Shown here: piece after piece, positions 5,711-16,968 of the stretch
Layout: each line of letters begins with the position of its first letter
Numbering within the stretch: position 1 is the first letter of the stretch
DNA from: Bacteroidia bacterium
GTDB lineage: Bacteria; Bacteroidota; Bacteroidia; NS11-12g; UBA955
Assembly: GCA_041391605.1 (NCBI GenBank)
Contig: JAWKNQ010000007.1
Coordinates: 23,195-87,194, forward strand
Reading direction: 5' to 3'
Length of the DNA: 64,000 bases
Made by a program: the position numbers and the translations under genes
The notes under the pieces: model-generated
What the model was told of the DNA's origin: nothing
The model's input: the letters and a program-made list of their open reading frames with translations, nothing else
The model's database searches: none

Positions 5711-7672
5711 ATGAACAAAAAATTACTTTTATCTGCTTTTTAATGCATTTTTTGGCATTTTCACAAAGCAAAGACGCATCTAGATTTGGGCAAACTGTTA
5801 TCGGGGGAGCTCAGAAGATCAACGCAAATCAAACTGCCTCAAAGATCCAAGCACCTTGGACTCTATGTTGAATGCAGGATCAAAATCAGATACGAAAATT
5901 CTTCCAATTCAAAAGAGGAATAATCAACTACAACTTTATCAAAGTAGGTAGTACTTATTACGATTTACAGACAAATGCCAGTATGGTTGAACGTATTCAC
6001 TTACACGACGATGGTAAAATTTCTTTGGCTTGGACAACCTCCACAATTGCTGCATACCAACGTGGCACAGGCTACAATCATTATGATTTAAGCAATTGGC
6101 TTACTGTAATGACCCAACACAAGACTTGAATCGGCTCGTTCCGTTTAGGTTGGCCCTCAATTAGGTTAACAACGGAAAAGAATGGGTTATGGGTCACTCT
6201 GCTGCTAATGGAGGTTTTGTAATGTCAACCAATGCAGTATTGAGTACTTTTACTTGGACAGGAAAGGATCTGCAATTCTTACAGAATCAGGACGTGGTAA
6301 TTTGGGGTCGTGTAATGAATTCTGGTGATATTTTCCATTGTGTAGCTAGTTATTCCTGACTCATCAAGTGCTGGCGGTAAGGCTCAAAGGTAATGGTGTT
6401 TATGCCAATGACATACAGTCGTTCAATGGATGGTGGTGTGAATTGGGATATTGAACATATTTTACTTCCTGGTTATGACAGTGCTAGAATTACTTCTGGG
6501 TGGCGGCGACCAATATGCAATTGATGTTCGCGATTCCTATTGTTGCTATTGTAACAGGCGGATTATTAAGAGATGTTGCAGTATGGAAATCTACTGACAA
6601 TGGTTCTACCTTTACAAAAATGATTTGTGACTCGTTATGTATGCTCCATATGATGCTAAAAAATTAATGCTTGATACGCCTTATACATCTGATGGTTCTG
6701 TTGATGTATTAATTGACAATAACTTGGTAAAATCCACATTTTGGGGAGTTGGAAGAGTGTTAGACACCGATACAACAGATGAATCTTATAGTTTCTATCC
6801 CTGGAACTTCATTGTTAGGTTACTGGAATGAAAATATTATGATGCCACAATTTATTGCTGGTGGTCTTCAATTTGATCGTGATGGAAGTGGTACAATTAC
6901 AATCTCAGCTGGTAACACTGCTACTCTTGAAAATGGTCTTGTCCCACAAGCACTTAAAAACAACGGTATTTCGTCAGTAGCGCGTTTAGGTAATACTTCA
7001 TTACTCCATATGCCTTCTGCTGGTATCGATGCAAATGGAAATATTTTCGTAACCTTCTCTTATCCATTAGAACAAGATTTAGATCCAAACAATGTTAACT
7101 TGAGAGATATTATGATTGTTCACTCTACAGACGGAGGTAACACATGGGCAGATCCACAAGACATCACTCAAATCAGAGGTTTTTGAAGAAAGAATTTGCT
7201 TGTATCGCGAAAAGTAAATGATTTCGTTCACGTTGTTTTTCCAACAAGATCAATTGGCTGAAACAATCTTCAAACAATAGTAATGTAGATAACAACCGCC
7301 TGCAGGTGTAAATGATATCGTTTATGCTGCTGTTCCTGTTGCTAAAATATTAGATGGTTCAATAGAGCTTTTATTGAATACAAACGTTTCAAAACTACAA
7401 TGCAATCAAAGAAGTGTTTATCGTTTCTCAAAACTACCCTAACCCATTCAGTTCTTCTTCAGAAGTTATTGTTTGGTTAGATACTGAATCAAACATTCAG
7501 CATTGATATTACAAATATTTCAGATAGGTAGTTTAACGCACTCAAAGTCAAGGGACTAAAGGTGCTGGAAATCGTTTTAAATATTAATGCGGATGGATTA
7601 ACTGCTGGAATTTACTTTTATACTGTAAAAACAGCGACTCACTCTGTAACCAAAAAGATGACCGTGAACTAA
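5711..7672 (+). pseudogene. Decayed gene for a T9SS-secreted BNR/sialidase-like repeat protein (multiple frameshifts and stops)
   Basis: Signal-peptide start MNKKLLLSAF then stop at 5711. Fragments 5872-6129, 6637-6831 and 6779-7186 sit in different frames. BNR motif STDGGNTWADP is present. An intact T9SS CTD reading (GIYFYTVKTATHSVTKKMTVN*) ends at 7672. Confidence 0.5.
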
Positions 7673-8410: not shown

Positions 8411-8436
8411 AAAAGCCGCAAATATTTGCGGCTTTC
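8411..8436. terminator. Bidirectional stem-loop terminator
   Basis: AAAA-GCCGCAAAT-a-ATTTGCGGC-TTT. Confidence 0.5.
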
Positions 8437-8484
8437 TAGTGGGAGCTACTGGGTTCGAACCAGTGACCCTCTGCTTGTAAGGCA
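8437..8484. repeat. attL-type direct repeat: 48-bp copy of the tRNA-Val 3' end
   Basis: tagtgggagctactgggttcgaaccagtgaccctctgcttgtaaggca is identical to 16891-16938. Confidence 0.85.
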
Positions 8485-8601
8485 TAATACCAACATTCTA
8501 TCTAGTATCACATTACTAGCACAAATATAAGTATTTCAATGCTTTAACCTATTGTTTTAGCACTCTGTTTGTTTAACGTTAGTTGTTAATTTATCAACAC
8601 T

Positions 8602-8624
8602 GTATGCAAATCGTATGCAAATCG
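8602..8624 (+). promoter_or_regulatory. Tandem 11-mer GTATGCAAATC x2 (candidate integrase arm-type site / int operator)
   Basis: Exact tandem repeat directly upstream of, and overlapping, the int start; related copy at 16825-16846. Confidence 0.4.
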
Positions 8625-8638
8625 CTTATATTCGTGTT

Positions 8639-9892
8639 ATGAAAAACGAAGTATTCATTTCTATTTACCTAGATACCAGAAGAAGCAAGTCGAATGGTAA
8701 GTATCCAGTAAAACTGAGGGTATTTACTACCAATCCCAGAGTTCAGAAGCTTTACCCGACTAAATATGAGTATACCGACAAAGAATTTGATAGCATCTGG
8801 AATACTTTAAAGCCCAGAAAAGAATTTAAACATCACAGAAAACAATTACTGGATATTGAAGACAACGCAACCGAGATTTCTAAAGAAATGGAATACTTTG
8901 ATTTCACTTTATTTGAAAAAAAGTACTTTAGGAATAACGGTGAAGGCAGCGATGTATTTTATCATTACGGTAAAACCATTGAGTCTCTTATAAAATATAA
9001 ACAACTAGGGACCGCCAGTAATTATAGATTAAGTGAGAAATCTATAAAAAAATATTTGAAGGATAAGACTGGTAAGGAAATAGACAAGTTGCATTTTAAA
9101 GAAATTACAATTAATTGGTTAAAAGATTATGAATCTTATATGGTTGATGCTAACAATAGAAGTTATACTACCGTATCCATGTATCTAAGAGCCTTGCGAA
9201 CGCTATTTAATAATGCAATCAAAGATAAAGACATTGAATCAACTATTTACCCATTTGGAGACGGTAAGTATGTAATACCAGCATCGCAAAACATAAAAAA
9301 AGCATTAAGCAAAGCCGATTTGAAATCTTTGTTTCATTCAAAACCATTGACTCCAGAGCAAGAAAAGGCAAAGGACTTTTGGTTTTTTAGCTATGCTTGT
9401 AATGGTATGAATATTAAAGATATTGCTTTATTGAAATGGGGCAATATAAAAGGCGAAACGATTGAGTTCTACAGGTCCAAAACTAAAAACACTAGCAAAT
9501 CGAAATTAAAGCCTGTTCAAATAATTCTGAATGACTTTACAAAACAAACCATTGAAAAATACGGAAGTTCCAACAAAGAAAGGGACCAATTGATATTTCC
9601 ATTTATTATGAATGGGAAATCTGATTTAGAAAATTTCAATAAGATAAAGAACTTTACTAAGTTTATCAATCAAAACTTAAAGAAATTAGCCATTTCAAAT
9701 GGTATTACTGGAGATATTTCAACTTACTGGGCGAGACATAGCTTTGCAACTAATGCTGTCCGTTTGGGGGCTTCTATGGAGTTCGTTAGTGAAGCATTGA
9801 GCCATAATAATCTCAAAACAACGCAGAGTTATTTTGCAGGTTTTGAAGAAGATAGTAAGATTGAAATAATGGAAAAATTAATGGCATTTTAA
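8639..9892 (+). CDS. int: Site-specific tyrosine integrase (Bacteroidota Arm-DNA-binding type)
   Basis: YLDTRRSKSNGKYPVKLRV arm-binding N-terminus; C-terminal ARHSFAT (HxxR) and TTQSYF catalytic Tyr. ATG at 8639 preferred over 8615, which lies inside the repeat. Confidence 0.9.
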   Translation: MKNEVFISIYLDTRRSKSNGKYPVKLRVFTTNPRVQKLYPTKYEYTDKEFDSIWNTLKPRKEFKHHRKQLLDIEDNATEISKEMEYFDFTLFEKKYFRNNGEGSDVFYHYGKTIESLIKYKQLGTASNYRLSEKSIKKYLKDKTGKEIDKLHFKEITINWLKDYESYMVDANNRSYTTVSMYLRALRTLFNNAIKDKDIESTIYPFGDGKYVIPASQNIKKALSKADLKSLFHSKPLTPEQEKAKDFWFFSYACNGMNIKDIALLKWGNIKGETIEFYRSKTKNTSKSKLKPVQIILNDFTKQTIEKYGSSNKERDQLIFPFIMNGKSDLENFNKIKNFTKFINQNLKKLAISNGITGDISTYWARHSFATNAVRLGASMEFVSEALSHNNLKTTQSYFAGFEEDSKIEIMEKLMAF

Positions 9893-9899
9893 TAATAAA

Positions 9900-10076
9900 A
9901 TGAATAGACATTCTACATTCTTTATTGATAAAATTAAAAGATTTGATATTTGCAATACCAGTATTACTGAGTTAATCGGTGGCAAATTAGAGTGGGCTTT
10001 TGAAACTAAACCAACCATGGGAGAACACAATTATTTGGTTGTAGCGGTTGTCTTAAAACAAATTTGCATGTATTAA
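9900..10076 (+). CDS. Small hypothetical protein (58 aa) on the element
   Basis: Uninterrupted ATG-to-TAA ORF not in the supplied track (<60 aa); no homology recognised. Confidence 0.2.
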   Translation: MNRHSTFFIDKIKRFDICNTSITELIGGKLEWAFETKPTMGEHNYLVVAVVLKQICMY

Positions 10077-10085
10077 ATGTAGTGA

Positions 10086-10463
10086 ATGAAAAGTTCAAAG
10101 AATTTCCATTTTGGTTGCGATATGCATAGACGAATGGTTAAGAATGATTGGTCCGACAAATCTAAAATGGGAGATTATCCCTTATTACTTGCCAATAAAC
10201 TTTCTTATACGTACCAACATGTAATCAATAACATTAACAAAGATGACTGGTACAGCGATATTTATAATTACATTGACTACACTGTAGAAAGTTTTGGTTC
10301 CTTTCCTTATCAGTATGGAGGACCATTGTACATAGATTACTATTATAAAAGTCTAATAAATCTAATTAGTAATATCGCAGGGATTGAAGCAAACAAAAAG
10401 AAGCTTCTAATTTCTTTAATAAATCAGTTCGCAAAACCAAGTATAAAAAATGATAAAGGCTAA
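10086..10463 (+). CDS. Hypothetical protein (element cargo)
   Basis: 125-aa ORF, Tyr-rich; no recognisable domain. Confidence 0.4.
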   Translation: MKSSKNFHFGCDMHRRMVKNDWSDKSKMGDYPLLLANKLSYTYQHVINNINKDDWYSDIYNYIDYTVESFGSFPYQYGGPLYIDYYYKSLINLISNIAGIEANKKKLLISLINQFAKPSIKNDKG

Positions 10464-11038
10464 AAACATCAGAAGTTTATAAAAAATGGGTTGATTCATT
10501 TCCTTTTGGATTACCTTTTTAGAACCCTATAAAAACAACTCTTTTGATATGTTTTTGATGTTTAAAAATACAGATGAATTTAATCCGTATAGTTGGCAAA
10601 ACCAAAATTCACATTTTAAGCAATCTGGAGTTGATAGAAATTCTAGTTCAAAAACAAAAGACATCTTAATTGCAGCTAATCGAGAGCTTAAAGCAAATAC
10701 TTATTCTATTACTGAAGCAAATAGAAATGCAAATGTTGATACTAAATGAAGACCATAGAATTGAACAAGAAAGTTTATTAATTGAGTTCACAAGAGGCGA
10801 GAAAAAATATATAAGCATATTAAGAAGATGGCTAAAGAAAGAGAATACTTTGACAAATTAAGACCTTATTTGAATGAAGATTCAACTCCTTTAACCCCCA
10901 ACAAAAAGGGACTTATTAAGAACGGCTTTAAAAGAAAAATGTTTTTTTAATCTTTCTAAAGTCAAAGATTTAAATGAAAACTCTACAGAACTTTTAATTC
11001 AACTTCTTTTTGACAACAAAATTCCTTATCAAATCGCA

Positions 11039-11278
11039 ATGTTTGACTATTTAGATTTTCTACCTTATTTATTGAAAGAACAATTCTATGGGAATAAATC
11101 GAAAATGATATTTTGGCTAACAAAGGTATTGAACAATGGGAAAAATGAACGTCAAATTAAGGGAAATATCAATATTTTAAATGAGAAAACAAACGAAAAA
11201 TCGGATAAATATACATCTCATTTGCATACCGAAAAAGTAATTAAAGATTATCAAATATTAAAAATTGGGGGTATTTGA
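11039..11278 (+). CDS. Hypothetical small protein (element cargo)
   Basis: 79-aa ORF; the upstream 10549-10895 region has overlapping short ORFs and in-frame stops, so it may be decayed. Confidence 0.3.
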   Translation: MFDYLDFLPYLLKEQFYGNKSKMIFWLTKVLNNGKNERQIKGNINILNEKTNEKSDKYTSHLHTEKVIKDYQILKIGGI

Positions 11279-11333
11279 CTTAATTTCCCCCAAAATAACC
11301 CTCTCATAATTGCAGTATTAAATAAATACTGTA

Positions 11334-11624
11334 ATGGAATTAACATTTGAACAACTCCCTTTAGCGATTAGGGACCTCACCAGCAAAGTAGAAAGAATTG
11401 AATCTTTACTACTCAATCGTTCGACCTCAGACAATGATACAGACCAGTTAATTTGTATCAAAGAAACTGCAAAGTATCTCAAATTATCGGTCCCAACCAT
11501 TTACCGAAAAGTTAGTAGAGGTGAAATACCTTATTGCAAGAAGTCCAACCGTTTATACTTTTCTAAATCTGAACTAATTGATTGGATTAAAACTAGCAGT
11601 TTCCCAGTTCTAAACAAAAAATAA
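11334..11624 (+). CDS. Helix-turn-helix DNA-binding protein, excisionase/Xis-like
   Basis: KETAKYLKLSVPTIYRKVSRGEIPYCK is a HTH_17-like motif typical of Bacteroidota mobile-element Xis/regulators. Confidence 0.65.
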   Translation: MELTFEQLPLAIRDLTSKVERIESLLLNRSTSDNDTDQLICIKETAKYLKLSVPTIYRKVSRGEIPYCKKSNRLYFSKSELIDWIKTSSFPVLNKK

Positions 11625-11628
11625 GATT

Positions 11629-12693
11629 ATGAAATTAAGTAATTTTGATAAGAACCAATTCAATAAGTTAGGACAACAAAGGACCGATAACAAGACAAAG
11701 CCTAAAAACACAAGCGACAAAACACTTAAAGGTAAGGGGTCCAAAATCAATCCAGAAAAGACAGGAAACTGGGCAAAGCGAAAGACAATATCATCAGTGT
11801 TGCTGCTCAATCTAATCACTGTAGCTGAAAAGAAAAGCAGAAATCCAAAAATAATTAAATCCTATAGGAATGCTTACTATTGTCTTAATGAGGTTGAAAC
11901 AAGCGGCAATAAGCTATTTGGCAAGTACTGTAAAAATAGGCATTGTTTGAATTGTGCTGCTATTAGAAAAGCGGAATTAATTAACAAATATTTACCTATT
12001 GTAAAGCAATGGAAGGACCCTCAATTGGTTACTCTTACAATTAAAGCTATACCCGCCAAAAACCTAAAGAAGTTTATGAAAGAAGGTATGGTGAAAGCAA
12101 TAAAAAGAATAATAGCAAGATACCGTAAAAGAAGCTACAGAAATGATTCAAAACCAATGATAGGAATAAGAGCATTAGAATGTAATTTTAACCCACAAAA
12201 ACGAACATACAATCCTCATTACCATTTGATAGTTTCAGACTTAGAAACCGCAAAAAATCTAGTAAAAGATTGGATGGCACTTTGGACCAACAAACACACT
12301 GGAATATATTCTCAAAACATAAGACCAGTAAAAGACACAACCAAAGATTTAATTGAGGTCATTAAATACGGTACTAAGATTTTTACAGACCCAACAATGA
12401 AAAAAGGCAGAAACAAAAAAACACCTCACTTTGTATACGTTTCTGCAATTGATAATATCCTAAATGCTATGATTGGTATTAGGCAATTTGAACACTTTGG
12501 GTTTAAAATCCCGAAACAAAACAAAGTAAAGTTTGACCCTGAAATAGCTGAAGAATTAAAACAATGGCAATTTGATTTAAGAAAAGCAGATTGGACTGAT
12601 ATCGAATCTGATGACAACTCTCTTTCTGGTCATTCATTAGACCCTAATACACAAAACACGTTAGAAAATAATATAAATCTGGATTTAGAATAG
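11629..12693 (+). CDS. rep: Rolling-circle replication initiator, pC194/pUB110 (Rep_1, HUH) family
   Basis: Zn-finger CKNRHCLNC; motif 2 NPHYHLIV (HUH); motif 3 VIKYGTK catalytic Tyr. Confidence 0.7.
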   Translation: MKLSNFDKNQFNKLGQQRTDNKTKPKNTSDKTLKGKGSKINPEKTGNWAKRKTISSVLLLNLITVAEKKSRNPKIIKSYRNAYYCLNEVETSGNKLFGKYCKNRHCLNCAAIRKAELINKYLPIVKQWKDPQLVTLTIKAIPAKNLKKFMKEGMVKAIKRIIARYRKRSYRNDSKPMIGIRALECNFNPQKRTYNPHYHLIVSDLETAKNLVKDWMALWTNKHTGIYSQNIRPVKDTTKDLIEVIKYGTKIFTDPTMKKGRNKKTPHFVYVSAIDNILNAMIGIRQFEHFGFKIPKQNKVKFDPEIAEELKQWQFDLRKADWTDIESDDNSLSGHSLDPNTQNTLENNINLDLE

Positions 12694-12700
12694 TTTTTCA

Positions 12701-12723
12701 GCGGAGAACAAATGATTCTCCGC
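12701..12723. other. Perfect 8-bp stem-loop GCGGAGAA-caaatga-TTCTCCGC between rep and the RM gene
   Basis: GC-rich hairpin with no 3' U-tract; candidate RCR origin hairpin or processing/attenuation structure. Confidence 0.3.
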
Positions 12724-12760
12724 CAAAATTCCTATGTTTGTGCAAAGCAAACAAAACTAA

Positions 12761-15700
12761 ATGACCGTATCTGAATACATTGAAAACCTTAATAAACGCT
12801 ATCAATTAGGCAACGCCACAGAACATACTTTCCGCGGCGACTTACAATCACTAATTGAAAGTCTGGTCCCAGAAGTAGCAGCAACCAACGAACCAAAACG
12901 AATCCAATGCGGCGCCCCCGATTATGTTATAACTAGGAAAGATATACCTATAGGATTCATTGAAGCCAAAGACGTTGGGACCGACCTAAGTAGCAAATCA
13001 CTAAAAGAACAATTCGACCGATACAAGGCATCTTTAAACAATCTTATCATTACAGATTATTTAGACTTTCATTTATATATAGACGGCGCTTTTGTCACCA
13101 GTATACGAATTGGAGAAATCTATAAAGGTGCCATCATAGCCAAACCTGAAAATTTAGAAACATTTGAAAATTTAATCAAAGATTTTTGTTTGCATATTGG
13201 GCAAACGATTAAAAGCAGTAAGCGTTTAGCTGAAATGATGGCAGCAAAAGCAAGAATGTTGTCTGATGTTATAGAAAAATCGCTAAACAGCGATGAAGAC
13301 AAAGATGCCAATAGCTCACTTAAAGACCAGATGACAGCGTTTAAGCAAATACTTATACATGACATCAAACCAAAGGAATTTGCAGACGTTTACGCTCAAA
13401 CTATTGCTTATGGTATGTTTGCGGCAAGATTACACGACCCTACATTAGAAACATTTACCAGACAAGAAGCGGCTGAACTAATACCAAAATCAAATCCGTT
13501 TCTTAGAAAATTGTTTGGTTATATCGCTGGACCCGACATCGACGACCGTATTAAATGGATAGTTGCGAGTTTAGCCGATGTTTTCAGAGCTTCAGATGTA
13601 GCAGCCATCTTAAAGAACTTTGGAAAATCAACACAAACCCAAGACCCTATTATTCATTTTTATGAAACCTTTCTAAGCGAATACGACCCCAAATTAAGAA
13701 AAGCCAGAGGGGTTTGGTATACGCCAGAGCCAGTAGTTAATTTTATAGTTCGTGCAGTAGATGACATATTAAAGACTGAATTTGATTTGCCACAGGGTTT
13801 AGCAGACACAAGTAAAACAAAAATTAAAGTAAATGTCCAAGGCAAGAAAGTAGAACAAGAAGTTCACCGAGTACAGATATTGGACCCAGCAACGGGAACG
13901 GGCACTTTCTTAGCAGAAGTGATAAAACAAATTCATGCGAAATTTGAAGGTCAAAAAGGCATTTGGTCCAACTATGTAGAAAATCAATTGTTACCACGTT
14001 TAAATGGTTTTGAGTTACTGATGGCATCTTATGCAATGGCTCATTTAAAATTAGATTTACTATTGACTGAAACAGGCTATAAACCAACTCGGAACCAACG
14101 ATTCAAAGTATATCTTACAAACAGCTTAGAAGAACACCATCCCGAGACAGGTACTTTATTTGCCAATTGGTTAAGCAGCGAAGCCAATGAAGCGAATCAA
14201 ATCAAAAGAGATACTCCTGTAATGTGTGTAATTGGGAATCCTCCATATGCTGTAAGTAGCAATAATAAAAGTATTGATACGGATGGACATAAAACTTGGA
14301 TTGGACGTTTAATTGATGATTACAAAAAAAACCTAAATGAAAGAAAAATTAACTTAGATGACGATTATATAAAATTCATTCGCTACGGTCAGTATTTTAT
14401 AGACAAGAATGGGAGTGGTGTTTTGGCTTATATATCAAATAATAGTTTCATAGATGGAATTACTCACAGGCAAATGAGAAAAAGTCTATTAGAATGTTTT
14501 AACAAGATTTACATTCTGGATTTACATGGGAGTTCTAAAAAGAATGAAGTTTCAATTAGTGGCGGTAAAGACGAAAATGTTTTTGATATTCAGCAGGGTG
14601 TGAGTATTAATATATTTATTAAATATAACCAGAAAAAACAAAGTAAATCAACCGAAGTGCTACATTCAGATATATTTGGTTTGCGAAAGGAAAAGTATTT
14701 AACTCTTGCCTCAAATTCTTTAAAAACAATCAAATGGGATAAATTAACATTGAAGCCGCCATATCATTTTTTTGTACCAAAGGATTACAATTCAATTAAC
14801 GAATATAACAAAGGTTTTCAGTTTACAGACTTATTTGTAAATTATAATTCTGGTATCCAAACTAAGAATGATAGTTTATCAATACAATTTCATCAAAATC
14901 AAATTGAAGCTGTGGTAAATGATTTCAAAACTGAAGGTGTAAATGAATTGAAAATCAAATATAATTTAAAAGATACAAGTGGATGGACAGTATTAAATGC
15001 TAAAAATGACTTGTTGAAAAATGAAGGCAATTTTTATAAAATATATTATAGACCCTTTGATTTGAGATATATTTATATGACAAATAAGTCAGGCGGATTT
15101 GTAGGCAGACCCAGAATGGATACTATGAGGCACTTTTTGAATGGAGATAATTATGGATTGATAACCGTGAGGCAACAAAGTACATTTGATTTTCAACATA
15201 TACTTATCTCAAATACAATTATGGAAAGTGGTGCAATTTCCCTTCAAACTAAAGAATGGGGCTATATTTTCCCCTTATACTTATACCCTGTTTCAAATAG
15301 CCAATTAAAAATAAATCAAACTGAAAAAAGGATTCCGAATTTGAACATAGAAATTATAAAATTAATTTCTGATAAATTAGGGTTTATATTTTCAAATGAA
15401 AAGGAAATTAGCAAAAATTCTTTTGCCCCTATTGACATATTAGATTACATCTATGCGGTATTATATTCACCAAAGTATCGAGAGAAATACAAAGAATATT
15501 TAAAAATAGATTTCCCCCGTGTACCTTATCCAAAGGACCAGAAAACATTTTGGGCATTGGTTAAACTAGGCAGTGAGTTAAGGCAAATACATTTATTAGA
15601 TAGCCCTGTCATTGAAAAGTATATTACCCAATACCCTATCGACGGCGATAACATTGTTGTAAAACCGATTTTCAAAGATGGCAAGGTATATATAAACGAA

Positions 15701-15901
15701 ACGCAGTATTTTGAAGCGGTCCCTGAGATAGCATGGAATTTTTACATAGGTGGTTACCAACCTGCCCAGAAATGGCTAAAGGACCGCAAAGACAGGGTTT
15801 TAGATTTTGATGACATTCTGCACTATCAGAAGATAATTGTAGCTTTGTTTGAAACAGATAGGATTATGAAGAAAATAAATCAGTTAATTTATAAAGATTA
15901 A
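12761..15901 (+). CDS. Type IIG (MmeI-like) restriction-modification enzyme: N-terminal PD-ExK nuclease, gamma-class N6-adenine methyltransferase, C-terminal TRD
   Basis: GAPDYVITRKD...IGFIEAKD (PD...EAK); LDPATGTGTFL (motif I); VIGNPPYA (motif IV); 1046 aa with no helicase or separate S subunit. Confidence 0.75.
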   Translation: MTVSEYIENLNKRYQLGNATEHTFRGDLQSLIESLVPEVAATNEPKRIQCGAPDYVITRKDIPIGFIEAKDVGTDLSSKSLKEQFDRYKASLNNLIITDYLDFHLYIDGAFVTSIRIGEIYKGAIIAKPENLETFENLIKDFCLHIGQTIKSSKRLAEMMAAKARMLSDVIEKSLNSDEDKDANSSLKDQMTAFKQILIHDIKPKEFADVYAQTIAYGMFAARLHDPTLETFTRQEAAELIPKSNPFLRKLFGYIAGPDIDDRIKWIVASLADVFRASDVAAILKNFGKSTQTQDPIIHFYETFLSEYDPKLRKARGVWYTPEPVVNFIVRAVDDILKTEFDLPQGLADTSKTKIKVNVQGKKVEQEVHRVQILDPATGTGTFLAEVIKQIHAKFEGQKGIWSNYVENQLLPRLNGFELLMASYAMAHLKLDLLLTETGYKPTRNQRFKVYLTNSLEEHHPETGTLFANWLSSEANEANQIKRDTPVMCVIGNPPYAVSSNNKSIDTDGHKTWIGRLIDDYKKNLNERKINLDDDYIKFIRYGQYFIDKNGSGVLAYISNNSFIDGITHRQMRKSLLECFNKIYILDLHGSSKKNEVSISGGKDENVFDIQQGVSINIFIKYNQKKQSKSTEVLHSDIFGLRKEKYLTLASNSLKTIKWDKLTLKPPYHFFVPKDYNSINEYNKGFQFTDLFVNYNSGIQTKNDSLSIQFHQNQIEAVVNDFKTEGVNELKIKYNLKDTSGWTVLNAKNDLLKNEGNFYKIYYRPFDLRYIYMTNKSGGFVGRPRMDTMRHFLNGDNYGLITVRQQSTFDFQHILISNTIMESGAISLQTKEWGYIFPLYLYPVSNSQLKINQTEKRIPNLNIEIIKLISDKLGFIFSNEKEISKNSFAPIDILDYIYAVLYSPKYREKYKEYLKIDFPRVPYPKDQKTFWALVKLGSELRQIHLLDSPVIEKYITQYPIDGDNIVVKPIFKDGKVYINETQYFEAVPEIAWNFYIGGYQPAQKWLKDRKDRVLDFDDILHYQKIIVALFETDRIMKKINQLIYKD

Positions 15902-16638
15902 ATTAAAGTTTGTTGATATACTTTTGTGAAGTATTTACTATAGTCGATTACTGGATATGGCAAATTTGGCTTTCCAAGCTTGTGTTTAATCAAATAAAAA
16001 AATAAATCTATCCTTACACTAGCAACAAATCCTTTATCCATATAATCTTCTATTAATACTCCTATTAATTTATATCTCGTTAATTTCCTTTTGTGAAAAT
16101 TAGTATTCCAGTCTGGTACAAACCAAAGTCCACTGCCACTCATTCCTGTTAATGAACTTAAATAGGTTTCTTTTACACCTCCAAATTTAACGCCCTTTTT
16201 CGAAATCCTTATTAAAAGATGAGACTCGTAATTAAACCCCCATTTATTATAATATTTTGGGTGAAAAGGAAAAGTCAATAAACTTTGTGGCTTGACAAGC
16301 TTTTTCTTTAATCCCTTTTTTAAGTTTGTTAAGGGAAAACCAGAAATAATATAGTCAGGTTTATTCATTAATTGATGATTTACCCACGTTGCAGATGGGA
16401 TTAATGCCTTCTGTTTGTTAATTAATAAAAACTGCTTAATTTCATTTGACAACTTCAATACAGAAACATCAATCTTTCCATTATTAGATGAAGAATCTAA
16501 GTAAGTGGTGCATAATGTTCCTTTTAGGTTAATATTCGTAAATCCAGTTAAATTTAACACCAACCCCTTTTTAAAGTTTTCTATTGAAAGTAAGTGACCT
16601 GCGGTCAACAAATAATAATCACCATAGATATAAAACAA
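15898..16638 (-). CDS. Trypsin-fold (S1-like) serine protease, cytoplasmic; 5' end disrupted or non-canonical (open frame to ~16795; ATG at 16751 is out of frame)
   Basis: LLTAGHLL (His), DVSVLKL (Asp) and GMSGSGLW (Ser) with chymotrypsin-like spacing. Its stop overlaps the RM stop by 4 bp (convergent). The track start is TTG. Confidence 0.55.
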   Translation of the reverse strand: MFYIYGDYYLLTAGHLLSIENFKKGLVLNLTGFTNINLKGTLCTTYLDSSSNNGKIDVSVLKLSNEIKQFLLINKQKALIPSATWVNHQLMNKPDYIISGFPLTNLKKGLKKKLVKPQSLLTFPFHPKYYNKWGFNYESHLLIRISKKGVKFGGVKETYLSSLTGMSGSGLWFVPDWNTNFHKRKLTRYKLIGVLIEDYMDKGFVASVRIDLFFYLIKHKLGKPNLPYPVIDYSKYFTKVYQQTLI

Positions 16639-16824
16639 TAAAGAGCACCCTAAAGGCTCTAATTTACTATCATCATTTTTTATAAATATGACGTATGTAA
16701 AATCAATTGCATCCTTAATTATATTATGAAACTTGTTTCTATTAATTTCATACGTTTTTTGGTAATAATCCTTTAAATTGTTTAATCTTTTATTTTACTG
16801 CTTTTTACTTTCATTATTAAAATT

Positions 16825-16846
16825 ATATGCAAATTGTATGCAAATG
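16825..16846 (+). promoter_or_regulatory. Tandem TATGCAAAT-type repeats near attR (candidate arm-type integrase site)
   Basis: aTATGCAAATtGTATGCAAATg in the same orientation as the copy at 8602-8624. Confidence 0.4.
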
Positions 16847-16886
16847 AAAAAAGGGTTTCAATCTGAATCGACCGAAACCCTTTTGT
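16847..16886. terminator. Stem-loop terminator
   Basis: AAAAAA-GGGTTTC-(14 nt)-GAAACCC-TTTTGTT. Confidence 0.5.
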
Positions 16887-16890
16887 TATC

Positions 16891-16938
16891 TAGTGGGAGC
16901 TACTGGGTTCGAACCAGTGACCCTCTGCTTGTAAGGCA
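16891..16938. repeat. attR-type direct repeat (overlaps the tRNA-Val 3' half)
   Basis: Identical to 8437-8484. Confidence 0.85.
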
Positions 16939-16968
16939 GATGCTCTGAACCAGCTGAGCTAAGCTCCC
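16894..16968 (-). tRNA. tRNA-Val (anticodon TAC)
   Basis: 75-nt cloverleaf hand-folded: acceptor GGGAGCT/AGCTCCC, D-stem GCTC/GAGC, anticodon loop CTTACAA, T-loop TTCGAAC, discriminator A. Confidence 0.9.

Follow-up and report, generated by a model that had tools for sequence, protein, structure and literature searches.

A tRNA-Val-integrated island of a Bacteroidota bacterium encodes a Rep_1-family rolling-circle initiator

The window analyzed here is a stretch of 64,000 nucleotides from the Bacteroidia bacterium contig JAWKNQ010000007.1 (GenBank assembly GCA_041391605.1, positions 23,195 to 87,194 of the forward strand). It contains an island, an insert of 8,454 bp that lies in the 3' end of a tRNA-Val gene on the chromosome of this low-GC Bacteroidota bacterium. 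The island carries a gene, rep, which, as judged from its sequence, encodes a complete Rep_1 (pC194/pUB110-type) rolling-circle replication initiator of the HUH (His-hydrophobic-His) nuclease type and, by profile hidden Markov model (HMM), not a mobilization (MOB) relaxase. The best explanation for the whole is that Rep is an active initiator that would serve as the replication module of an island able to excise from its tRNA-Val site, and we give this explanation a probability of about 0.55. Taken by themselves, the identity of the protein and the structure of the element can be held with high confidence, and for the mechanism, i.e., replication after excision, the chances appear to be even.

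11629-12693, plus strand: rep, a 354-aa open reading frame (ORF) running from ATG to TAG, Rep_1-family HUH rolling-circle replication initiator

A preliminary description of this DNA had already read rep as a Rep_1 initiator on the basis of the motifs YNPHYHLIV, EVIKYGTK, and CKNRHCLNC, and the profile HMM scan agrees with it. Rep matches the Pfam family Rep_1 (PF01446) with an E-value of 2.8e-10 and 40.5 bits, over a gathering cutoff of 33.2. The match spans only residues 99-252, and the N-terminal 98 aa or so and the C-terminal 100 aa or so are clade-specific. The three quoted motifs are all present in the translation, CKNRHCLNC at residues 101-109, YNPHYHLIV at 194-202, and EVIKYGTK at 243-250. 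Motif 1 is FVTLT (residues 133-137), motif 2 is HYH (197-199), and motif 3 is E243-x-x-K-Y247-x-x-K250. The N-terminus contains a helical region and a Cys4 ribbon formed by C85, C101, C106, and C109.

In the alignment of Rep with 43 homologues, the four cysteines of the ribbon, T135, T137, E184, the Y194-N-P-H197-x-H199 stretch, K246, Y247, and K250 are identical throughout, and E243 is kept in at least 90% of the sequences. With the Rep of the Bacteroides fragilis plasmid pBFP35 and a Rep_1 protein from Staphylococcus aureus in the alignment as well, most of these residues are still invariant, including E243, and so is L136. We thus consider the catalytic domain to be complete, because the motif residues stay invariant even with these distant plasmid proteins in the alignment. 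Rep is complete and is probably active as an initiator. The preliminary description had singled out CKNRHCLNC as a zinc finger; the motif is there, but it is not special to this protein, since CxxxxCxxC is invariant in the classical Rep_1 proteins too, and C101, C106, and C109 are also found in the Staphylococcus Rep (CKNRFCPMC). C85 is invariant within the Bacteroidota clade and is no longer so on adding the plasmid proteins.

An identical protein is found in the database under the name 'MAG: protein rep [Bacteroidia bacterium]', together with 160 further relatives, and PF01446 is carried by all 120 of the Rep matches listed. Pfam also shows much weaker likenesses below threshold, one to the Rep domain of the phage G2P type and one to the zinc-binding domain of IS91 (E=0.015). 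NCBIfam returned only an IS91 transposase model, far below threshold (E=0.0038, 16 bits, cutoff 125). No relaxase (MOB) family was matched by Rep in the Pfam and NCBIfam scans, and there was no match to PHROG. The AlphaFold model of Rep, built on the homologue alignment, is confident, with a predicted local distance difference test (pLDDT) score of 86, and its residues 132-250 are ordered beta-alpha-beta-beta-alpha-beta-alpha, as expected for an HUH nuclease. Compared by Foldseek with the predicted viral structures of BFVD, this model has 55 matches at E<=1e-3, among them replication initiators of Microviridae and a replication protein of a filamentous phage.

The borders of the island and the genes that precede rep are the following:

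8435-8484, no strand: attL, the displaced 3' 46 nt of tRNA-Val plus 4 nt, a perfect 50-bp direct repeat (50/50) with 16889-16938
16889-16938, no strand: attR, within the intact tRNA-Val(TAC) gene
16893-16968, minus strand: tRNA-Val(TAC) gene, intact; Rfam gave no match other than the tRNA
8615-9892, plus strand: int, tyrosine integrase with the layout of the Bacteroidota IntDOT/IntN1-like enzymes (Phage_int_SAM_5 7e-15, Phage_integrase 4e-12)
9900-11278, plus strand: pseudogene between int and xis, remnant of a conserved protein of about 430-450 aa
11334-11624, plus strand: xis-like HTH_17 (helix-turn-helix) gene, 96-aa Xis/AlpA-like DNA-binding protein (HTH_17 4e-14)

These borders agree with the proposal of the preliminary description that rep lies on a chromosomal integrative element. 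The 50-bp tRNA-Val repeats bracket the region, and the setting is chromosomal because the genes that flank the island, outside the repeats, are the housekeeping genes holA, rsfS, birA, and coaX. The gene order within the island is integrase, a decayed gene of about 440 aa, the HTH_17 gene, rep, a Type IIG restriction-modification gene, and an unknown gene. The preliminary description had also placed rep beside an Xis-like gene and an integrase. This is true for xis, whose stop codon lies 4 nt ahead of the rep ATG, but the integrase is separated from xis by the 1.4-kb pseudogene. The integrase has, in addition, a weak match to Arm-DNA-bind_5 and a match to a PHROG integrase (9e-26). The xis-like protein scores 34.3 bits against TIGR01764 'excise' (cutoff 28.8). 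A role as a regulator or as a Rep-accessory protein fits the HTH_17 protein equally well as that of excisionase, because its gene is coupled to rep in a conserved manner and has a palindrome at its own promoter.

The island is not an isolated case. Relatives were gathered from contigs of one genome per species (206 confirmed, 79 loci kept), from metagenomes (299 confirmed, 80 kept), and by exact look-up, and their hosts are Flavobacteriia, Chitinophagia, Saprospiria, Cytophagia, Sphingobacteriia, and Bacteroidia. An exhaustive search for Rep homologues gave 193 cluster representatives with E<=1e-30, a number that grows to 1104 with E<=1e-10. The module formed by int, one variable gene (1.0-1.4 kb), the HTH_17 gene, and the Rep_1 gene is conserved and was found also in Kordia and in the loci L082 and L084. 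A xis gene adjoins rep in 57 of 77 loci, and a co-oriented int lies upstream in 47 of 63; in the enlarged set, the xis-like gene is directly upstream of rep in 98 of the 125 unique loci. Many of the related elements (5.6-13.6 kb) have as their borders directly repeated copies of a tRNA 3' end, the tRNA being that for Val, Lys, Ser, Asn, Pro, Met, Asp, or Arg, and L004 represents a minimal element of 5.6 kb at the same tRNA-Val site as the island. The architecture of a recombinase with such flanking repeats recurs among the relatives at 8 other tRNA species. About 75 of 80 loci have kept rep intact, and this implies selection. The closest relative, L082, has a Rep with 59% identity, and the nearest Reps on sequenced plasmids are those of 5.6-kb cryptic plasmids of Bacteroides/Phocaeicola, with about 27% identity. 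No Rep match was found in 50,697 phage records, and relatives of Rep appear in 2 of 2.9 million IMG/VR viral contigs. An origin from a single-stranded DNA (ssDNA) phage or a prophage was discarded on these grounds and for the lack of a PHROG match.

The cargo of these elements lies either between int and xis or downstream of rep, and comprises restriction-modification systems of Types I, IIG, and III, a resistance-nodulation-division (RND) pump with a P-type ATPase, and proteins secreted by the type IX secretion system. Two related 13-kb islands, L048 at tRNA-Lys and L074 at tRNA-Met, carry downstream an RND pump (AcrB/CzcA-like, fused to OEP), a P-type ATPase, and further genes, with no restriction-modification; therefore, the family also spreads metal or efflux resistance. 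A second integrase was observed 1.2-1.4 kb downstream of rep in L009 (11516-12727), L018 (11187-12344), and L051 (10531-11514). It lies just past the target tRNA in L009 and within the delimited element in L018, which suggests tandem or composite islands.

The gene call itself is not new, as the NCBI pipeline already labels the protein 'protein rep'. The combination of integrase, excisionase, and rolling-circle Rep on a tRNA-integrated element is already known from Actinobacteria, and integrated elements with a rolling-circle initiator are already known from Firmicutes. We have found no description of the Bacteroidota island family in the searchable literature. The part of the gene table of the Riemerella '10K genomic island' considered here contains no Rep, and on that part this island was set aside as a described member of the family. 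Thus, the island type is widespread and apparently undescribed in Bacteroidota, and it resembles integrative elements of other phyla.

There is a direct precedent for the way in which such an island might work. The integrative element pSAM2 of Streptomyces, which is integrated in a tRNA gene and carries Int, Xis, and the pC194-family initiator RepSA, has been shown experimentally to replicate by the rolling-circle mode (PMC2440964), and rolling-circle replication also follows the excision of ICEBs1 and Tn916 (PMC5704250). We infer that the tyrosine integrase, probably with the help of the HTH_17 protein, would recombine attL with attR, restoring the tRNA gene and freeing a circle. Transcription from a promoter about 25 nt upstream of xis would yield both xis and rep. 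Rep, by means of its His-hydrophobic-His metal site and Tyr247, would then nick one of the circle's strands at a double-strand origin, and rolling-circle replication by the host helicase and polymerase would follow. This replication would spare the excised form from loss at cell division and would raise its copy number before re-integration or transfer. The origin would most likely lie within 11265-11335, a region that could as well be an operator for autoregulation. The function of the homologous Rep in the Bacteroides plasmids appears to be replication, because it coexists with a separate MOBV gene (pBFP35). The perfect att repeats and the intact int, xis, rep, and cargo speak in favour of a functional island copy, the sole pseudogene lying in the variable slot.

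Two sequence elements upstream of xis deserve attention as the site where Rep might act:

11265-11293, no strand: inverted repeat TTGGGGG-15 nt-CCCCCAA, from the fold analysis
11309-11335, no strand: palindrome ATTGCAGTATT-aaata-AATACTGTAAT, which ends in the xis start codon and overlaps a -7-box-like TTG

The first element sits where the relatives have iteron-like direct or inverted repeats that are specific to each element, about 40-100 bp upstream of xis. Its equivalents are, for instance, three copies of AATTACC plus inverted copies in L004 and a repeated CCACCAAAACCAC in L037 and L052. The palindrome has a fold z-score of -4.3, and its equivalent in L082 is TTGCAGTAT-caaaaac-ATACTGCAA. 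Both the stem sequence and the loop length of this xis-proximal inverted repeat differ from locus to locus, and its presence is conserved: a perfect stem of at least 6 bp within 40 nt upstream of the xis ATG exists in 27 of 58 loci (47%), mostly abutting the ATG. The same criterion is satisfied by 14% of 895 other ORF upstream regions of the same loci, and by about 6 of 58 in shuffled sequences, 12 being the highest count. When a stem of 7 bp or more is required, the values are 31% upstream of xis versus 5% of the control upstream regions.

Neither strand of the xis-proximal stem folds better than the other, and there is no excess of G.U pairs. The tetranucleotide TTTG peaks at positions -30 to -21 from the xis ATG (24 of 55 loci, versus 2-8 in the other 10-nt bins), and therefore the -7 box would be located at the left arm, the transcript would start within the repeat, and the repeat would be a promoter-overlapping element acting at the DNA level. 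A reading of the xis-proximal hairpin at the RNA level was consequently rejected, given the lack of strand asymmetry and G.U excess and a transcript that would miss the left arm. The palindrome at 11309-11335, with the repeats upstream of it, is our best candidate for an operator and/or a double-strand origin. In the pMV158 family and in circular Rep-encoding single-stranded (CRESS) DNA viruses, the double-strand origin has a layout of this kind, with repeats and then a hairpin or palindrome just ahead of a small DNA-binding gene and rep. The same layout is equally that of an autoregulated promoter, and the origin and operator readings are not separable by sequence alone.

The preliminary description had placed a possible origin on the other side of rep, at a hairpin immediately downstream of the gene:

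12701-12723, no strand: hairpin GCGGAGAA-caaatga-TTCTCCGC, a perfect 8-bp stem without a T-run, not called as a terminator
12733-12740, plus strand: TAtgTTTG promoter-like box, within the block CCTATGTTTGT and 20 nt upstream of the ATG of the restriction-modification gene

The hairpin lies exactly at this position, and the 67-nt intergenic region 3' of rep folds with a z-score of -4.7, none of 200 shuffled sequences being as stable. Its conservation is another matter. Of 81 related loci in which the downstream sequence could be read, few possess a stem of comparable strength directly 3' of rep, and in 50 none was found. L082 lacks the hairpin, yet it shares the block CCTATGTTTGT, which in the island comes after the hairpin position, and the hairpin would thus mark the boundary between the xis-rep unit and the variable cargo. 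Probably, it serves the xis-rep transcript as a local boundary or as a 3'-end element. The -7 promoter consensus of Bacteroidota, known from Bacteroides and Flavobacterium promoters, is TAnnTTTG, and the TAtgTTTG box inside the shared block matches it.

Several observations count against an active, replicating island. The downstream hairpin had to be rejected as a replication origin, since it is not conserved in the relatives. The nick core of the pC194/phiX174 type, of which the preliminary description had proposed to look for the pC194 form, is missing: CTTGATA and CTTGAT have no occurrence on either strand of 8485-16888. The relaxed word TTGATA occurs 23 times in the island against about 12 expected, scattered in coding DNA. 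The non-coding DNA of the relatives yielded no nick motif conserved in sequence, a k-mer search upstream of xis for a shared motif gave only A-rich words, and no recognisable single-strand origin was identified in the island. The palindrome at 11309-11335 overlaps the promoter and could be an operator only. In a terminal-overlap check on contigs of which about 50 are complete and short, none of the 17 complete short genome-derived contigs and none of the 80 metagenome loci was circular, and thus the assemblies show no sign of free circles. The pseudogenised conserved gene between int and xis may indicate that this copy of the island is decaying. Finally, a Foldseek search of the Rep model against solved structures gave nothing significant, the best HUH match being a RAYT transposase with E=0.22. 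The missing nick core bears on the origin and not on the protein, and diverged clades may use another nick sequence. The preliminary description had named the lack of any nick sequence combined with a truncated catalytic domain as a refutation of its initiator reading; with a complete catalytic domain, this reading is not refuted. One further word was considered as a family nick site, AATTTATCAACA (bottom strand GTTGATA), which lies beside the left arm sites described below and is conserved with L004. It was discarded, as it is kept neither in L046 nor in L074, despite the same arm repeats, nor elsewhere.

The observations also admit other explanations. Neither a MOB relaxase nor any transfer protein is encoded by the island or by its minimal relatives of 5.6 kb; the scans with Pfam, NCBIfam, PADLOC, and PHROG matched no MOB/relaxase family in any island ORF, and the domain scans found no FtsK/TraSA-like gene in the island or in the minimal relatives. 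Nonetheless, the family is spread over Flavobacteriia, Chitinophagia, Saprospiria, Cytophagia, and Bacteroidia and over many tRNA genes. Rep might therefore be chiefly a non-canonical relaxase that nicks an oriT-like site after excision, the strand leaving through the type IV secretion system of a co-resident Bacteroidota conjugative element, which would make the island an integrative mobilizable element (IME) lacking a canonical MOB gene. Among the island's proteins, Rep alone could take this part. In fact, Rep_1 initiators of Firmicutes plasmids double as relaxases for ICEBs1, and most streptococcal IMEs have relaxases related to rolling-circle initiators (PMC5357655; PMC5704250). However, all the Bacteroidetes IMEs of a 2017 review have canonical MobP/MobV relaxases, and the relaxases of rolling-circle type have so far been linked to the TcpA/FtsK-like coupling proteins of Firmicutes (PMC5704250). 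The Bacteroides plasmids with a homologous Rep keep a separate MOBV gene, suggesting that Rep alone is insufficient for transfer, and neither a coupling protein nor an oriT has been identified in the island. For Bacteroidota, such a relaxase role has no known precedent. We regard this explanation as unlikely. The same doubt extends to a broader proposal, according to which these islands would be minimal mobile elements found throughout Bacteroidota in which, besides the integrase, Rep_1 is the sole DNA-processing enzyme, acting as initiator and transfer relaxase (or as generator of concatemers for phage or vesicle transfer) at a hairpin origin that co-evolves with each element, with the HTH_17 protein as partner.

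It is also conceivable that the island copy is an immobile, decaying remnant whose genes are still open by chance or through recent arrival. The middle gene is heavily degraded, with at least nine stops and a frameshift, rep is broken in about 5 of 80 relatives, int or xis is missing from many loci, and no circular forms were seen among the related contigs. Nevertheless, the island keeps int, xis, rep, and the restriction-modification gene (1046 aa) intact, the att repeats are identical at 50 of 50 positions, the arm-type repeats and the promoter palindrome are preserved, and the decayed gene occupies a slot that is variable in the family, being probably accessory and not needed for mobility, which makes a dead remnant quite unlikely. 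The layout of integrase, AlpA/Xis-like HTH protein, replication gene, defence cargo, tRNA site, and a size of 5-14 kb also matches that of the marine VEIMEs (the virion-encapsidated integrative mobile elements; PMC9618062), and restriction-modification cargo is frequent in the family. The island could accordingly be taken for a phage satellite of the VEIME or phage-inducible chromosomal island (PICI) type, excised upon induction by a helper, with Rep-generated concatemers packaged in helper capsids and the restriction-modification enzyme serving phage interference. We find this very improbable, since the family is nearly absent from the viral contigs and the phage records mentioned above and Rep has no PHROG match, no terminase small subunit, capsid, or packaging-related gene was seen in the island, and metal efflux pumps and secreted proteins are also among the cargo of the family, as is typical of ordinary genomic islands. 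The last alternative concerns the protein itself, which might be an IS91/ISCR-like rolling-circle transposase in view of its weak likenesses to the IS91 zinc-binding domain (Pfam) and transposase model (NCBIfam). These scores are far under their cutoffs whereas Rep_1 passes its own; there is a single catalytic Tyr with ExxKYxxK, as in the pC194-type Reps, and the element borders are integrase-type att repeats in a tRNA gene and not IS91-type ends. This reading is effectively excluded by the HMM scores.

With Rep read as an initiator of an excising island, the comparison with known systems delimits what is particular here. Rep shares CxxxxCxxC, FxTLT, HxH, ExxKYxxK, and a similar length with pC194 RepA, pUB110 RepU, and the pBFP35 'protein rep', although the identity to the plasmid Reps is only 25-28%. 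Unlike the plasmid genes, the island rep is integrated in the chromosome, is translationally coupled to an HTH_17 gene, and has no CTTGATA, and whereas pBFP35 has a separate MOBV gene, the island has none. With the AICEs (integrative and conjugative elements of actinomycetes) of the pSAM2 type, the island has in common a tRNA-integrated element of about 10 kb, a tyrosine integrase, an excisionase-family protein, and a pC194-family Rep, which in those elements replicates the excised circle (PMC2440964). It differs in belonging to another phylum and in lacking the FtsK-like TraSA, the Kor/Pra regulators, and the spread genes; moreover, the nick site of pSAM2 matches the pC194 consensus, and no such site exists in the island. 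The island would work like the replication and integration module of an AICE but is not a member of the AICEs.

In the MobT integrative and conjugative elements (ICEs) ICEBs1 and Tn916 and in the streptococcal IMEs (Rep_trans, Rep_2, Viral_Rep, PHA00330), an HUH initiator is the only DNA-processing enzyme besides the recombinase, as in the island, and it may serve both maintenance and transfer (PMC5357655; PMC5704250). Those elements, however, use other HUH families, often have a TcpA coupling protein, and reside in Gram-positive hosts, Rep_1 being reported there on plasmids only. NBU1/NBU2, Tn4555, and Tn4399 share with the island a Bacteroidota host, integration at a tRNA 3' end (NBU1), an arm-binding integrase, arm-type repeats, and small Xis-like proteins. 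They have canonical MobP/MobV relaxases and an oriT with no rolling-circle Rep (PMC5704250), while the island presents the reverse situation. The marine VEIMEs resemble the island in size, in the set of integrase, AlpA/Xis-like regulator, replication gene, and defence cargo, and in tRNA-adjacent integration (PMC9618062). In contrast to them, the family is almost absent from viral contig collections, and the island gives no sign of encapsidation or helper dependence.

The module of int, variable gene, HTH_17, and Rep_1 defines a family of small tRNA-integrated islands across the classes of Bacteroidota. If Rep is active, these islands would be the Bacteroidota counterpart of the pSAM2- and ICEBs1-type elements that replicate after excision, which would explain how small islands without transfer genes persist and spread. 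Should the dual initiator/relaxase reading be true, they would represent the first Rep_1-driven IME family and the first non-canonical relaxase system in Bacteroidota. The promoter-overlapping palindrome offers a concrete, testable candidate for an origin or operator, and with an active Rep the islands could also supply compact parts, integrase plus replicon, for genetic tools in Flavobacteria and related bacteria.

The remaining features of the island are its putative integrase arm sites, its terminators, and its cargo:

8602-8611 and 8613-8622, plus strand: left tandem of GTATGCAAAT, two copies, candidate arm-type integrase sites
16825-16845, plus strand: right tandem ATATGCAAAT / GTATGCAAAT, candidate arm-type integrase sites, kept in L004
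8437-8410, minus strand: original tRNA terminator hairpin, a terminator-like site that stays behind the displaced tRNA 3' fragment at attL
16849-16884, minus strand: element-borne intrinsic terminator with 15 pairs and a T-run, which serves the reconstituted tRNA-Val and is kept in L004
12761-15901, plus strand: restriction-modification cargo, a 1046-aa single-polypeptide Type IIG / Type ISP-like enzyme
15898-16638, minus strand: 246-aa ORF, cargo or unknown, with no Pfam, NCBIfam, PADLOC, or PHROG match

The left tandem GTATGCAAAT repeats are identical in L004 despite diverged flanks. Across loci L001-L084, the tandem 8-10-bp words just upstream of int vary with the type of integrase, and include GTATGCAAAT, CTGTCAAC, TTGTACCT, TGTGCAAAT, ATGTTTTAAAA, and others. 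These repeats probably behave as arm-type integrase sites and not as Rep sites, because the word changes with the integrase type and the repeats are located at both ends of the element. It was also observed that the annotated int ATG (8615) falls inside the second GTATGCAAAT repeat. The true start of int may be the next Met, the ATG at 8639 (MKNEV...).

The decay of the middle gene is seen as three stops around 10074-10085, a frameshift at about 10460, and six or more additional stops, with the tblastn matches split over two frames. The gene is intact in relatives, encoding 427 aa in L082 and 435 aa in L009. No Pfam, PHROG, or PADLOC match was obtained for this family, and its predicted all-alpha model has no match in PDB. 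The slot between int and xis is variable and holds unrelated genes in Kordia, L004, and L031, and therefore the middle gene is probably accessory and dispensable for mobility. Two distant homologues are fusions, P0179 to TIR/SEFIR and P0180 to CHAT. There are thus hints of an accessory, perhaps defence-related role, not of a mobility function.

Some Rep homologues are longer, with N-terminal extensions of 90-130 aa (e.g., P0185 and P0186), and none of them has an HTH_17 domain. The idea that they are Xis-Rep fusions, which would be a sign of functional coupling, was rejected for this reason. In P0185 and P0186 the extra residues look like the N-terminus of the middle-gene family, which is rich in Cys and His (FPxCCxxHK...FPxCCDxHK), and the two proteins are probably deletion fusions without xis or gene-calling artefacts.

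The restriction-modification enzyme matches the PADLOC model REase_MTase_IIG with 1160 bits, as well as Type_ISP_C (7e-77), N6_Mtase, and Eco57I. The adjoining 246-aa ORF contains LTAGH and GMSGSG, which resemble the His and Ser motifs of trypsin-like serine proteases, and it may be a defence or abortive-infection partner of the enzyme. Just to the left of the island, at 5872-7186 on the plus strand, consecutive short ORFs in different frames, with a higher GC (0.36-0.39), carry BNR/Asp-box-like motifs (STDGGNTW, STDNGSTF), and this region looks like a fragmented, pseudogenised BNR-repeat glycosidase/sialidase-like gene.

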